A stretch of DNA of 5,527 nucleotides from a virus. This document shows, piece by piece, positions 61 through 5,527 of this stretch; the first letter of the stretch is position 1; every line of letters starts with the position of its first letter. Location: IMG/VR virus record IMGVR_UViG_3300045988_000440, positions 1-5,527 of that record; one strand, written 5' to 3'. A program made the position numbers and the translations under genes. The notes below the pieces were generated by a model, which saw only the letters and a program-made list of their open reading frames with translations, had not been told where the DNA came from and did not search any database.

Positions 61-135
61 AAGGCAGTCCGGCGAGCGAAACCGGAAAGTTACGTCATGC
101 TCTTCGTACGGCGCACCGCGCCTAGCGCATGGCCT
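61..135. other. GC-rich island inside an A/T-rich intergenic region, with two short perfect hairpins (ccgg-cgagcgaaa-ccgg at 69-85; ggcgc-acc-gcgcc at 110-122). It may be a structured RNA or DNA element involved in ori, packaging or regulation.
   Basis: The stretch aaggcagtccggcgagcgaaaccggaaagttacgtcatgctcttcgtacggcgcaccgcgcctagcgcatggcc is markedly more GC-rich than the flanks. The inverted repeats were read by eye. No ORF with a start codon and RBS is present. Confidence 0.4.
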
Positions 136-159: not shown

Positions 160-187
160 TTGACAAATCCCAAAAGTGTGGTATAAT
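160..187 (+). promoter_or_regulatory. Near-consensus sigma70-type promoter: -35 TTGACA (160-165), a 16-nt spacer, an extended -10 TGgTATAAT (179-187), and a predicted transcription start near 194-196.
   Basis: Read directly as ttgacaaatcccaaaagtgtggtataat. Both hexamers match consensus perfectly and a TGn extended -10 is present. The element sits immediately upstream of the first small gene. Confidence 0.75.
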
Positions 188-1293: not shown

Positions 1294-1762
1294 GTTTCGA
1301 AGCGCGTACAGCGGACAGGTAAGGCATACGAGCCTGACCGGCAACGGCCACGAGCCGGAATATGAGTACAAGGTAACAGACGAAGGCCGGGAACTGGTAA
1401 AAACCGGCGAAACAGACGTCTATGCACTCATTCAGAGTCGTCTGGATGAGACCAAAATCGAGAACATCATCAAACGGGCAACGTATGACCCGACTGCACT
1501 GGGCAGTCAGGACTGGCAGACCAGCGAGACGATGACCGATATTTCGGACGCACCAACAAACTACCACGAGTGGTATGGGCGTATCAAAGACGCGGAAGCC
1601 GAGTTTGACAAACTGCCCATCGAAATCAAAAACAAGTGGGACAATGATGTAGAAAAATACATCATGGCCTATGGAACCCAAGAGTGGGCAGACAAAATGG
1701 GCATAGCAAAACAGAAAGCCGAAGCGGAAAAACCGGCTGAAAAAAGTGAGGTGAAAGAATGA
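1286..1762 (+). CDS. VP3-like internal scaffolding protein candidate, 158 aa (MSKFRSAYSGQ...KSEVKE).
   Basis: The real start is the ATG at 1286, with a gaggg RBS at 1272-1276. The first 54 codons of ORF-track entry 1124..1762 overlap the upstream gene in another frame and are Arg/Ser-rich out-of-frame sequence. The ORF ends in an ATGA overlap with the VP1 start. It is acidic. Its size and its position directly before the major capsid gene fit the gokushovirus VP3. Confidence 0.5.
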   Translation: MSKFRSAYSGQVRHTSLTGNGHEPEYEYKVTDEGRELVKTGETDVYALIQSRLDETKIENIIKRATYDPTALGSQDWQTSETMTDISDAPTNYHEWYGRIKDAEAEFDKLPIEIKNKWDNDVEKYIMAYGTQEWADKMGIAKQKAEAEKPAEKSEVKE

Positions 1763-3408
1763 ACCGCAACAGTGAATACAACTTTGCACAAAATCCGCAG
1801 GTCGGAGTAAGCCGCAGCCGATTCCAGCGCAACAGCGACAACAAAACGACCTTCAACACGGGCGACCTCATCCCAATCTATCTGGATGAGGTGTTGCCGG
1901 GTGATACGCACCAAATCGACGTTGCCTGTGTCATGCGAATGGCGACACCCATCTTTCCTGTGATGGACAATGCCTACTGCGACTTCTACTTTTTCTTCGT
2001 GCCTAACCGCTTGCTCTGGGAACACTGGAAAGAGTTTATGGGCGAGAACAAGGAAACCGCATGGACACCTAAGACGGAATACAGTGTGCCGCAGGTAACG
2101 GCACCAGCAGGCGGATGGGAAGAAGGTACGCTGGCGGACTATCTGGGACTACCTACCAAAGTTGAAGGCATCAGCGTAAGCGCTCTGCCCGGTCGAGCAT
2201 ACGGCCTCATCTACAACGAGTGGTTTCGAAACCAGAACGTCACGCAGCCAACGCTCGTAGAGGTGACAGACGCAACAACGACCGGCAAAAACGATGGCAG
2301 CGGTACCAACGACAGCGCTATCACGCTGGCAAAGCCTCTCAAGGCAGCGAAGGTGTTTGACTACTACACCGGAGCTTTGCCGGAACCGCAGAAAGGCGAG
2401 CCAATCACGATTCCGCTAGGCGGAAACGCACCGATTTACGGTTTTAAGGACATCGCCTTAACCCAAAAAATCGAGGCAAACCCGTCGTCTCTCAACAGGA
2501 TATGGACGAGTAAACCGGGCGGAGATGGGAAAAGTCTCATCTATGAGGACAGCGGGGCGACCAACAAAGGACAGATTGGGTTATACGAATTTGACCAATG
2601 GGGCAACTACAACGGGAGCGGAATCTTGGGTGCAGACCTCAGCAACGTCACGGCAACAACCATCAACCAGCTCCGTCAGGCATTCCAAATTCAGAAGCTG
2701 CTCGAAAAAGATGCACGAGGCGGCACGAGATACCGCGAGGTACTGCGCGAGCACTTCGGGGTTATCTCTCCTGACTCTCGTATGCAGATTCCGGAGTATC
2801 TGGGCGGCTACAGACTGCCTATCAACGTGTCTCAGGTTATCCAGACCTCTTCGAGCGACGACACGAGTCCGCTGGGCAACACAGCGGCGTTGAGTGTAAC
2901 CACCATGAATAAACCTATGTTTACCAAGTCCTTTACTGAGCATGGCTTCATTATGGGTCTGGCAGTCGTCCGTACCGACCAGACCTATCAGCAGGGTATC
3001 GAGCGCATGTGGAGCCGCAAAGGCCGGTATGATTACTACTGGCCGGTACTGGCAAACATCGGCGAACAAGCCATCCTCAACAAAGAAATCTATGCACAGG
3101 GCAACACGAAAGATGAAGAGGCGTTCGGCTACCAAGAGGCATGGGCCGACTACAGGTACAAGCCCAGCAAAGTAACTGGGCTTTTCCGGAGCAACGCAGC
3201 ACAGAGCCTCGATGCATGGCACTATGCACAAGATTACGACGCACTACCCACGCTGAGTACGGCATGGATGGAGCAGACCGACACCGAAATGAAAAGAACA
3301 CTGGCAGTACAGTCTCAGCCGGACTTTATTGCAGACTTCTACTTCATGAACAAAACAACGCGGTGTATGCCGGTGTACAGCATTCCCGGCCTCATCGACC
3401 ATCACTAA
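1759..3408 (+). CDS. Major capsid protein VP1 (Microviridae F-like jelly-roll capsid protein), 549 aa.
   Basis: The N-terminus MNRNSEYNFAQNPQVGVSRSRFQRNSDNKTTFNTGDLIPIYLDEVLPGDTH is the characteristic gokushovirus VP1 start (the S-R-S-R-F...F-N/T-G-D-L-I-P...E-V-L-P-G-D-T motif block). The 549-aa length is typical for VP1. A strong RBS gtgaggtga precedes it. Confidence 0.93.
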   Translation: MNRNSEYNFAQNPQVGVSRSRFQRNSDNKTTFNTGDLIPIYLDEVLPGDTHQIDVACVMRMATPIFPVMDNAYCDFYFFFVPNRLLWEHWKEFMGENKETAWTPKTEYSVPQVTAPAGGWEEGTLADYLGLPTKVEGISVSALPGRAYGLIYNEWFRNQNVTQPTLVEVTDATTTGKNDGSGTNDSAITLAKPLKAAKVFDYYTGALPEPQKGEPITIPLGGNAPIYGFKDIALTQKIEANPSSLNRIWTSKPGGDGKSLIYEDSGATNKGQIGLYEFDQWGNYNGSGILGADLSNVTATTINQLRQAFQIQKLLEKDARGGTRYREVLREHFGVISPDSRMQIPEYLGGYRLPINVSQVIQTSSSDDTSPLGNTAALSVTTMNKPMFTKSFTEHGFIMGLAVVRTDQTYQQGIERMWSRKGRYDYYWPVLANIGEQAILNKEIYAQGNTKDEEAFGYQEAWADYRYKPSKVTGLFRSNAAQSLDAWHYAQDYDALPTLSTAWMEQTDTEMKRTLAVQSQPDFIADFYFMNKTTRCMPVYSIPGLIDHH

Positions 3409-3449: not shown

Positions 3450-4256
3450 ATGTCATTTTTAGCAGCACTAGCAACAGGAGCAAAAGTACTAGGTGGCGTA
3501 AGCGGCCTCATAAACGCCGGAACAGGCATCTTCAACGCGCTCAAAGGCACATCCGGCAGCGGAGCAACAAGCTCAAGTGGATACCAGACAAGCCAAGGCG
3601 CAAGCGGCTCAACCATGACCGGCGAAAGCGGCGTAAATGTTGACCAAACAAAAGACCTAGCCAAATACTTCTTAGGACAGAGCCAGCAAGCACAGGGCAT
3701 GCAAAGCCTACAAAACAACAAAAACAGTCTCACGGCACTGGGATTAAACACACTAGGAGCTATCCAGCAGGGCATTTACAATCGTATCCAGCAAGACGCA
3801 GCAATGTCCTACAACTCCGCAGAGGCAGCAGCAAACCGGGCATGGCAGGAGCGTATGAGTAACACAGCATACCAGCGCGGCATGGCCGACATGAAAGCGG
3901 CAGGGCTAAATCCCATACTGGCCTATGCACAAGGCGGGGCAAGCACTCCAACGGGAGCACACGGAACAATCGGGCAGAGCAGCATAAGCGCGCCGAGCGT
4001 TGGAACGCAGTCGGCAAGTATGCCGACGATCTCCGGCACAATGGCAAACTATAGCCGTCAAAAGGCCGAAAGCTGGTCGTGGACGGACTCGCACGGAGAA
4101 CAGCACAGCAGCGGTTACAACAGCTATCAGACGGACTTCCCGGACTTGACCGGATGGCTCAACCAAAACAACAACAGCGGCAAAAGCACAGCAGCCGGAG
4201 GCGGCAAAAAAGACAAACAAGGCTTCGGCGGCAGCAAAGGAGGCAGTTTTAAATGA
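3450..4256 (+). CDS. VP2 DNA pilot / minor capsid protein, 268 aa.
   Basis: The protein is rich in Gly, Ser, Ala and Gln, with the N-terminus [28 protein letters not shown] and a Gly/Lys-rich C-terminal tail. It lies immediately downstream of VP1 and is coupled to VP4 by an ATGA overlap. The composition and location are those of gokushovirus VP2. Confidence 0.8.
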
Positions 4257-5275
4257 GTTGCGCAAGACCACTCATCAGAATATACAATCCGAATGACCAC
4301 AATATAACAGGGTCAATCATGACCTTAGAAACATACCGCGAAAGAGCACACAATCCAACAGCAACGTATGAGAGCCTCGCATACCGCACAGACGTAATGC
4401 TACTGCCATGTGGCAAATGTCTCGGATGCAGACTCAGACAGCGGCAAGACTGGGAGACGCGAATGTTGATGGAGTCAAAAACACTGACGCCGGTATGGTT
4501 TTTGACGCTGACGTGGAATCAAGAGTATGTGCCGGGAATGGTAAGAGAAACAGGCGAAATCATAAGAGGTGCAGTGCATCAGTGGACGACCGGAGACGCA
4601 CCGGAAGTGGTGCAAATTCTCCTACAAGAGGACATGGTACGCTTTAACAAGAGGCTACGCAAAAAGCAAGAAATGTCCGATAAATGGGGCTTAGACCTGA
4701 GATATTTTTATTGCGGCGAATACGGAGAAAACACGGGCAGACCGCATCACCACGGCATTTATTATGGGCTGGAGATACCAGACCTCAAGAAAAAAAGAGG
4801 TAATAATCCGTACTTCGAAAGCGAAGAGATAAACAAGATATGGGGCATGGGTAACGTCATCATCGCAGAAGCATCACCGGAAACAATGGCTTATGTAGCA
4901 GGATATGTAACCAAAAAAACATACGGCAACGACAACAAAAGGTATAGAGAGTTAGGCTTAACACCGCCATACTGTTGTATGTCGAGAAATCCGGGTCTGG
5001 GGTATGACTACTACACGAGCCATAAAGAGCAGATGTACGCAGATGATGGGCTATACTTCAACGGTAAAAAAAGGCCGATACCAAGGTACTTTGATAAAAA
5101 ATACGAAGCAGAAAACCCGAAAAGCCTATGGAGCATAAAAGAAAAACGACAGTCGAGCGCAATAAACGCCTTAAAACTCAAAATGGCCAATACAGGATTG
5201 ACCATAGAGCAGGAAGCAAAAGTAGAGGAAGAGACAAAGAAACAGAGATTTAAAAAAGCCAGAGGGCTATTATAG
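4253..5275 (+). CDS. VP4 replication initiation protein, a rolling-circle HUH endonuclease of the phiX174 gpA superfamily, 340 aa.
   Basis: The N-terminus MSCARPL is followed by a Cys cluster ([22 protein letters not shown]), an HUH motif ([11 protein letters not shown]) and a double-tyrosine active-site motif ([11 protein letters not shown]). An AGGAGG RBS lies 8 nt upstream of the start. Confidence 0.93.
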
Positions 5276-5279
5276 TGTC

Positions 5280-5326
5280 AGTGGGCCTAATCCTATCAAG
5301 AAGAGGATTAGGCCCACTATTTATTT
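5280..5326 (+). terminator. Strong rho-independent terminator after VP4: a perfect 15-bp stem (agtgggcctaatcct / aggattaggcccact), a 9-nt loop, then a T-rich tail (atttatttt).
   Basis: The left arm (5280-5294) and right arm (5304-5318) are exact reverse complements, read directly. The stem begins 5 nt after the VP4 stop codon. An alternative reading is a structured ori or packaging hairpin. Confidence 0.7.
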
Positions 5327-5340
5327 TCGCTTATTATATA

Positions 5341-5527
5341 TAACTTGTTGTAGTCGTAGTAGTAGGGGCTGTGGAAAAGTTGAAAACCATGAATTTTTAT
5401 CCTTGGAACGATATTTTTTGGATTATTTTGATGTTGATACTTTTGTGGATAACTTGTTGAATTGTTGAAAGCGTAGCAATATGCACAAAACCATTTGTGC
5501 AACTTTTTGTGGAAAACCTGTTGAAAG
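5341..5527. repeat. A/T-rich intergenic region containing iteron-like direct repeats. TTTTGTGGAWAACYTGTTGAA occurs at 5441-5461 and at 5506-5526 (the latter identical to 7-27). TGTGGAAAAGTTGAAAAC lies at 5370-5387. Multiple GTTGAAA(G) copies are present, plus a (TAG/TCG)n trinucleotide run at 5350-5365.
   Basis: Read directly. With the copies at 25-51 this gives at least 6 GTTGAAA copies and 3 TGTGGAWAAC copies within about 200 nt across the circular junction. Confidence 0.7.
5482..5501. other. Perfect 8-bp hairpin tgcacaaa-acca-tttgtgca set among the iterons. It is a candidate protein-binding or ori-associated structure.
   Basis: The arms are exact reverse complements with a 4-nt loop. The hairpin sits between the two TTTTGTGGAWAAC repeat copies. 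Confidence 0.4.

Follow-up and report, generated by a model that had tools for sequence, protein, structure and literature searches.

An oriC-like module of DnaA-type boxes and trios in the non-coding region of a gut gokushovirus

The genome IMGVR_UViG_3300045988_000440, which belongs to a gut phage and, according to its gene content (Pfam and PHROG matches), to a gokushovirus-type microvirus, raises the question of what kind of element is formed by the long, repeat-rich non-coding region that follows its replication initiation gene, VP4. The window analyzed here is the whole stretch of 5,527 nucleotides of that record. From the VP4 stop (5275) the non-coding span runs across the junction for 378 nt to the -35 hexamer of a promoter and for 433 nt to the ATG at 215, about the length (380 nt) given in an earlier sequence-only reading. 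That reading had described a replication-type control region with iterons, hairpins, and a structured GC island. Its landmarks, namely a 15-bp hairpin after VP4, a TAG run at 5351-5365, a tandem triplet of 9-mers at 25-51, an 8-bp hairpin at 5482-5501, and a downstream promoter, were all confirmed; the island exists as well, but no structure was detected in it. We consider that the module of ~230 nt at the center of this region (window 5319-5494 plus 1-51) is probably an oriC-like, DnaA-dependent element that acts on the double-stranded replicative form. Judged by its sequence, it appears to copy or imitate, in compact form, the origin of a Firmicutes chromosome, one of the Ruminococcus type.

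The repeats and their arrangement

Comparison of the window with itself revealed that bases 5495-5527 are an exact copy of bases 1-33. This 33-nt terminal repeat is the overlap of a circular assembly and not a biological repeat; the true genome length is therefore 5494 nt, and motif counts taken across the junction are inflated, with one TGTGGAAAAC and one GTTGAAAG counted twice. GTTGAAA occurred six times in the window (0.85 expected) and TGTGNAWAA four times (0.29 expected), and neither count was reached by any shuffle. The real genome contained five exact copies of GTTGAAA, all within the non-coding region and none elsewhere on either strand, and three copies of TGTGNAWAA, all in the non-coding region and all on the same strand. 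TGTGGAWAAC was present twice, and the third related copy was TGTGGAAAAG at 5370. The abundance of repeats claimed earlier (at least six GTTGAAA and three TGTGGAWAAC) was thus well above chance, but the double-counted overlap reduces these numbers to five and two.

In reverse complement, TGTGGAWAA gives the DnaA box TTWTNCACA. When 13 GenBank gokushoviruses were aligned, and again when 58 modules were placed in register, TGTGGAAAA and TGTTGAAAA interchanged at homologous positions; both types of "iteron" therefore form one 9-mer family, TGTKGAAAR, which, as far as sequence can tell, includes exact DnaA boxes. The ten boxes, all co-oriented on the plus strand and in fixed slots, formed three clusters. 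Cluster A (5370-5387) consisted of TGTGGAAAA, an exact box of the TTWTNCACA type at 5370, abutting (A)GTTGAAAA(C) at 5378. Cluster B (5432-5471) contained TGTTGATAC at 5432, TGTGGATAA at 5444, TGTTGAATT at 5455, and TGTTGAAAG at 5463; the box at 5444-5452 is a perfect TTATCCACA consensus, and the box positions of this cluster were fixed across the 58 modules. Cluster C (14-51) contained TGTGGAAAA at 14, TGTTGAAAG at both 25 and 34, and TGTTGAAAA at 43, with a spacing of 11, 9, and 9.

Along the plus strand, the module comprised an AT-rich stretch, trios, a 4-nt GC spacer, two abutting boxes, and two four-box clusters. Pelliciari et al. define the basal unwinding system (BUS) of bacterial origins by a DnaA box that departs from the consensus at no more than two positions, a spacer no longer than 16 nt with a GC gap of ~4 bp in it, and, on the 5' tail, three or more consecutive NAN trios (consensus 3'-GAT-5'). 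In the window, the box at 5370-5378 reads TGTGGAAAA, or TTTTCCACA on the opposite strand, and has one mismatch to TTATCCACA. It is preceded by the short, GC-rich spacer GGGC (5366-5369) and by a DnaA-trio-like run, TTG TTG TAG TCG TAG TAG TAG (5345-5365, plus strand), in which TAG TAG TAG at 5357-5365 lies 4 nt from the box and an additional TAG is found at 5351. The second box of the tandem, (A)GTTGAAAA at 5378-5386, has two mismatches to TGTGNAWAA, and the arrangement in Ruminococcus is alike. Distal to the trios, the stretch 5319-5344 (85% A+T) reads as a flank resembling a DNA-unwinding element and occupies the same position as the AT-rich DNA beside the trios in Ruminococcus oriC. Folding against shuffles predicted that 5331-5400 is essentially without self-structure (-0.2 kcal/mol, z = +1.6). 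A DnaD recognition element comprises at least two 5'-TnnT-3' motifs opposite the trios, and the complement of 5357-5365, CTACTACTA, contains two overlapping TACT. The composite TAGTAGTAG-N4-TGTGNAWAA occurred once in the window, compared with 0.00 expected in shuffles.

The incC region of Bacillus subtilis oriC contains DnaA boxes 6 and 7, GGCC, six DnaA-trios, and an AT-rich 27-mer (Richardson, 2016; Pelliciari, 2021), and the phage module displays its AT-rich DNA, 5' trios, 4-nt GC spacer, and tandem TGTGNAWAA boxes in the same order and polarity. In B. subtilis, the six trios stand at the head of the unwinding element; the strand opposite them reads 5'-CTACTATTACTTCTACTA-3', 5' of which lie the boxes, and the trio strand reads TAGTAGAAGTAATAGTAG, spacer, box. 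The spacer is GGCC before box 7 of B. subtilis, GGGC in the phage, and GGGG or GGGC in Ruminococcus. The trio consensus 3'-GAT-5' (5'-TAG-3') and TnnT on the opposite strand are common to the phage module and the bacterial BUS. On the other hand, the phage module is carried by a 5.5-kb single-stranded DNA phage genome, has all its boxes in one direction, and extends over only ~230 nt. Furthermore, a chromosomal oriC lies on a chromosome beside dnaA or dnaN, whereas this module sits in a microvirus genome of 5494 nt, with VP4 on one side and small open reading frames (ORFs) on the other; it would thus work in the manner of a chromosomal oriC without being one.

Conservation, mobility, and likeness to Ruminococcus origins

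GenBank contributed 48 gokushovirus records with the module; in IMG/VR it was carried by the 46 nearest VP4 relatives and by 100 or more additional genomes. Overall, more than 150 gut gokushovirus genomes have it. Box density was 29.8 per kb inside the modules and 0.088 per kb outside, an enrichment of ~340-fold. Across 14 divergent genomes, column conservation reached 94% in the trios and 89% in the boxes, compared with 68% in other module columns and 55% in the spacer. The boxes were the same in phages whose VP4 proteins are 32-96% identical, including phages with a VP4 only 32-58% identical to that of the window. In KT264788 (L001, 3647-4019), the module and the downstream small-ORF region were ~88% identical to the window, with a VP4 identity of only 45%. 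From these comparisons, the non-coding cassette has evidently been exchanged by recombination between distant gokushovirus lineages. At least 7 of about 150 genomes have the module inverted with respect to every gene and/or relocated. Its place in KT264784 and KX513864 is between VP2 and VP4, instead of after VP4, and MT121961 has the same placement after VP2 (for these three relocated modules, L006 and L013 have an annotation of the flanking VP4). A sequence scan of phiX174, Chp2, phiMH2K, and SpV4 found neither a box cluster nor a (TAG)3 run, and no similarity to the module was detected in a plasmid collection.

Two further observations concern the behavior of such modules. Near position 5213 of IMGVR_UViG_3300045988_002433, the module contained an internal tandem duplication of ~77 nt that repeats cluster A and the following spacer, which indicates that the box array is able to expand. 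Modules with AT-rich DNA, (TAG)n, a GC spacer, and a box pair, followed by further GTTGAAA-type boxes, were also observed in two "viral" contigs that are not microviruses, L283 (IMG/VR, at least 14.3 kb; ~13040-13360) and L234 (23.6 kb; ~2000-2313). L283 encodes a SNF2-type helicase, and neither dnaA nor dnaN lies close by. Origin modules of this kind may also be in use in further mobile elements of these hosts.

Bacterial genome contigs were scanned for the 9-mer array, which gave 120 matches; most were unrelated tandem repeats, and two loci in metagenome-assembled genomes (MAGs) of uncultured Ruminococcus were relevant. The first, CANQVA010000006.1 (L148), has the gene order yidC-yidD-rnpA-dnaA, a spacer of 1.35 kb, and dnaN, as assigned by Pfam. 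On the strand opposite dnaA, the spacer reads ...TAAATAAATA-(TAG)5-GGGG-TGTTGAAAC-TGTGGAAAA-CTATG..., and this core is followed by 33 co-oriented boxes (TGTTGAAAA 12 times, TGTTGAAAG 11, TGTGGAAAA 8, and TGTTGAAAC 2). The trio-spacer-box core of the phage was 89% identical to that of L148 over 27 nt, and the 9-bp tandem arrays of L148 matched phage cluster C over 26/26 positions at 96% and over 20/20 at 100%. The dnaA-dnaN spacer of L148 (4464-5809) is an unusually long, repetitive oriC, in which two or three repeat units of ~258 nt each have the box spacing 87, 11, 21, 113-115, 15, and 9. In the second MAG (RUG11850, CACYDZ010000036.1, ~510-1130), 27 TGTKGAAA-type sites on both strands were accompanied by seven canonical TTWTNCACA boxes, with no adjoining dnaA within the 8 kb at hand; this cluster could belong to a bipartite origin as its second half, or stand as a DnaA-box cluster of its own.

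The DnaA proteins closest to the DnaA of L148 carried the source names Ruminococcus sp. or R. flavefaciens, and three origins from such DnaA genes had TTG/TAG-type trios beside a box. The first dnaA-dnaN spacer reads ATATATA-TTG TTG TAG TAG TTG-GGGC-GGTTGAAAT-GTTGGGAC, the second ATATA-TTG TTG TTG TTA TAG-GGGC-GGTGGAAAA-GTTGAGAC, and the third ...ATTGTATAG-TC-TGTGGAAAA. Two of these origins (L181 and L183) have the full layout of GGGC and box pair, and in the other (L182) a lone box follows a 2-nt TC spacer. The corresponding phage sequence is TATATAAC-TTG TTG TAG TCG TAG TAG TAG-GGGC-TGTGGAAAA-GTTGAAAAC, so that its TTG triplets are host-like too. The sequences themselves show the anatomy of the module, how well it is conserved, and how nearly it equals real Ruminococcus origins. 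Phage and Ruminococcus origin agree in their box variants, which occur in similar proportions, in their 9-bp tandem arrays, and in the (TAG/TTG)n-GGGG/GGGC-box-box core; the Ruminococcus origin differs in its size (0.45-1.35 kb), in its number of boxes (up to 33), and in its internal repeats of ~258 nt. The similarity is one of motifs and arrays, with no single continuous alignment, and therefore fits capture from a host and convergence alike. It suggests that the host of the phage is a Ruminococcus from flavefaciens-related lineages.

Mode of action and alternative explanations

The host-like boxes, the tolerance of inversion and relocation, the unstructured core, and the location in a gap between terminator and promoter all argue that the module acts on the double-stranded replicative form. 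Inversion and relocation as a cassette, in particular, fit a function on double-stranded DNA, and the gap between the VP4 terminator and the promoter at 160-187 is read as transcription-free. From these sequence features we infer, as follows, that DnaA would bind and unwind the module and how replication might be affected. Host DnaA-ATP would fill the boxes on the double-stranded replicative form, the trio-proximal box pair would direct DnaA to oligomerize along the TAG strand, and the AT-rich flank would melt. The opposite strand would offer its TnnT motifs to DnaD and so allow helicase and primase to be loaded, the helicase possibly by DnaD, DnaB, and DnaI. The outcome would be DNA synthesis driven by the host initiator besides the rolling-circle replication by VP4, or an opening of the duplex for VP4; theta-type synthesis, lagging-strand priming, and mere opening for VP4 are candidate consequences. 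It is possible, but we put it forward tentatively, that this clade carries a working host-type origin on a rolling-circle genome, which would support mini-chromosome-like replication or pass a melted strand to VP4.

Several points weigh against a DnaA-dependent origin. We know of no need for DnaA in microviruses, and phiX174 replicates with gpA, the Rep helicase, and the PriA primosome. Nor does the binding of DnaA to an array imply that it fires as an origin. The majority variant, TTTTCAACA, breaks the classical consensus TTWTNCACA at position 6, where that consensus invariably has C, and DnaA binding to TGTTGAAA-type sites is deduced from their abundance in dnaA-dnaN spacers. The host is assigned by origin similarity, and the phage has a higher G+C content (48.6%) than the Ruminococcus loci retrieved (36-46%).

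The alternative that survives best, which we nevertheless regard as unlikely, is that the array serves as a DnaA sponge or switch, binding DnaA without firing, so that titration stalls host initiation or phage transcription becomes coupled to DnaA-ATP. Bacteria are known to have clusters of DnaA boxes with titrating or regulatory roles (datA), and this explanation would account for ten co-oriented boxes per genome, the strong enrichment over the rest of the genome, and the position of the array just upstream of the first strong promoter in the window. However, titration would require neither trios nor a 4-nt GC spacer nor an AT-rich flank, and the trios are the best-conserved columns of all (0.94). 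In layout, the phage element and the unwinding module of real origins agree base for base, and the position of the phage module relative to promoters varies.

Somewhat less probable still is a complementary-strand origin, at which a primosome of DnaA, DnaD, DnaB, and DnaI would assemble at the trios and boxes of the incoming single strand. Escherichia coli has a DnaA-dependent "ABC primosome" that uses a hairpin with a DnaA box, and in about 95% of genomes the TAG strand, the one that DnaA would bind as single-stranded DNA, is the coding and so presumably the packaged strand. In many relatives the module closes with TTTTCCACA in inverted orientation, which could pair with a TGTGGAAAA 16 nt upstream and place a box in a stem, but this hairpin-box variant is often mismatched. 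In the window, the boxes are all direct repeats without a pairing partner, and the core is predicted to be unstructured. Moreover, the inversion of the module in at least seven genomes is not accompanied by a change of strand composition: the coding strand has 34% A and 17.6% T in direct and inverted configurations alike, a comparison that is uninformative as to a switch of the packaged strand. The coding strand of the window is A-rich and T-poor (A 33.8%, T 17.6%), as in its relatives; this bias is opposite to that of the T-rich viral strand of phiX174, and phiMH2K is similarly A-rich.

The view that the repeats are iterons bound by the Rep protein VP4, as proposed in the sequence-only reading, would make the region a rolling-circle double-strand origin with a nick nearby, for example at TAACTTG/TTG. 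We consider this improbable. The region does adjoin rep in most genomes, the hexamer AACTTG is shared with the phiX174 nick site CAACTTG^ATA (the phiX174 origin sequence was verified), and ATAACTTGTTGTAG was the most conserved 11-14-mer among 12 divergent genomes, with none comparable in VP4. But the repeats equal host origin boxes, and they remain invariant, with no co-variation with Rep, when VP4 identity drops to 32%; neither orientation nor position relative to rep is fixed. The candidate nick site was downgraded, as TTGTTGTAG, which surrounds AACTTG, is itself found in a Ruminococcus flavefaciens-type origin (ATATATTGTTGTAGTAGTTGGGGC), and ATAACTTGTTG recurs at a box junction (5449). The viral-strand origin of phiX174 is likewise a cis replication element of Microviridae, a stretch of 30 nt inside gene A (CAACTTG^ATATTAATAAC...). 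It lacks boxes and trios and lies inside the rep gene, unlike the module, and only 6 nt of the phiX174-type origin CAACTTGATATTAATAACACTATAGACCAC, those of the shared hexamer, are matched. In geminiviruses and CRESS viruses, and in the double-strand origins of pT181 and pMV158, direct repeats lie beside rep in an intergenic region, as they do in the phage; those iterons co-vary with Rep, flank a nick-site hairpin, and have a fixed orientation, whereas the phage repeats do not co-vary and the module is invertible. DnaA boxes are also known from the mobile-element origins P1 oriR, F, pSC101, and RK2, where they are few and accompany 17-22-bp Rep iterons. Like these origins, the phage embeds host DnaA boxes in the origin of a mobile element, but its repeats are of the DnaA type only, the trio module is complete, and its own initiator is an HUH rolling-circle nuclease. 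We conclude from the sequence comparisons that the binder is likely a conserved host protein and that VP4 is disfavored, and the suggestion made earlier as an alternative, that the repeats bind a host factor, fits the evidence.

Another host protein such as Spo0A, which binds B. subtilis oriC and the DNA of phi29-family phages and could link phage replication to sporulation or stationary phase, is a very improbable binder: TGTTGAA and TGTGGAA are each one position off the 0A box TGTCGAA, but position 4 was always G or T and never C across the 58 modules, and the trios and the GC spacer, like the exact forms TTATCCACA and TTTTCCACA, are specific to DnaA. An UP element, also proposed earlier, did not stand, since UP elements are A/T-rich sequences at about -40 to -60 and the repeats lie about 110-330 nt upstream of the -35 hexamer (they end at 51, the hexamer starts at 160), and other genomes have no fixed promoter downstream. 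The TATATA region did not match the E. coli and B. subtilis dif sequences when a dif/XerCD-like site was considered.

Flanking features and significance for gokushovirus biology

The DnaA-dependent, oriC-like module favored here is bordered by elements of other kinds. Upstream, VP4 (4253-5275, plus strand) was identified as a replication initiation protein gene by Pfam PF23343 (E = 1.8e-14) and PHROG 942 (E = 4e-105). Five nucleotides past its stop, a perfect 15-bp stem (5280-5294/5304-5318, plus strand) with a 9-nt loop is followed by the T-rich tail ATTTATTTTCGC, the whole extending over 5280-5330 (-17 kcal/mol, z = -7.6 as single-stranded DNA). With its stable, GC-containing stem and T-rich tail (ATTTATTTT), the hairpin is a probable intrinsic terminator that closes the VP4 transcription unit; the terminator scan had a loop limit of 8 nt and hence missed it. 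Between clusters B and C, an 8-bp hairpin, TGCACAAA-ACCA-TTTGTGCA (5482-5501, plus strand; -8.1 kcal/mol, z = -2.3), overlaps with its right arm the weak box-like sequence TGTGCAACT. Conservation in relatives, for which the sequence-only reading had called, was found for the repeats but not for either hairpin: relatives have different GC-rich hairpins at the position of the first, and the second is confined to one module lineage, in which the stem is kept and the loops vary, with two other lineages having different sequence.

The GC-rich island (61-135, plus strand) has a conserved core at 92-134, CGTCATGCTCTTCGTACGGCGCACCGCGCCTAGCGCATGGCC, that is nearly invariant in 23 relatives. Its interpretation as a structured RNA or DNA was rejected, for it folded like shuffles (z = -0.4 on the plus strand and -0.5 on the minus strand) and the 23 relatives displayed neither covariation nor compensatory pairs. 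Other genomes contain an unrelated "type 2" GC island in its place, and in MT121961 (L005, 1436-1522) the type 2 island keeps the gene orientation ~1 kb from an inverted module. The island core thus appears, from these sequences, to be a separate, strand-specific element that is co-oriented with the genes and lies outside the oriC-like module. It could be one possible place for the VP4 nick site or for a minus-strand signal.

Downstream, a consensus sigma-70/sigma-A promoter (160-187, plus strand; TTGACA at 160-165, 16 nt, and TG-n-TATAAT at 182-187) matches 12/12 positions with the TG present and is placed by position to drive the small ORFs that start at 215. Pfam and PHROG recognized no DNA-binding or replication domain in the small ORFs at 215-1051. 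A perfect 13-bp palindrome (AAAAGAGGGCTTG/CAAGCCCTCTTTT, 573-599) lies at the end of ORF 416-586 and overlaps an 11/12 promoter-like site (TTGACA-16-TACAAT, 583-610); together, the two probably mark a place where terminator and promoter meet between early small ORFs. The remaining genes encode ORF5/VP5 (1051-1293), the Chlamy_scaf scaffold protein (1124-1762), the major capsid protein (1759-3408; Phage_F, E = 4e-173), and the VP2 pilot protein (3450-4256). Within the non-coding region, a minus-strand ORF (5317-5502) was rejected as a gene, the equivalent frame being open in just 18 of 58 modules, and an Rfam scan (E <= 1) and an ARAGORN tRNA scan returned no matches.

Elements of this kind are well known in bacteria, but a conserved mobile cassette of this type in a rolling-circle single-stranded DNA phage appears to be new. 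In the paper library searched, no report connected DnaA or its boxes to gokushoviruses or Microviridae, and such a phage element goes unmentioned in the DnaA-trio papers reviewed. The oriC-like module bears on where and how gokushovirus DNA synthesis starts, and it provides a sequence open to testing by established assays of DnaA binding and strand separation. For gut phages of this type, which lack a cultured host, the predicted host, a Ruminococcus related to R. flavefaciens, was obtained independently of CRISPR spacers or prophages, and the matching of box variants and trio layout to bacterial origins could be extended to other viromes. The inversion of the cassette and its exchange between phages whose Rep proteins are 32-45% identical indicate that replication modules are traded within Microviridae. 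If the DnaA-dependent reading is true, a host-initiator-dependent step would be added to the textbook scheme based on phiX174. Under the more tentative reading of a working host-type origin, helicase loading would permit plasmid-like carriage in Ruminococcus, and the box variants in the intergenic regions of microviruses would be a general, readable signature of the host.

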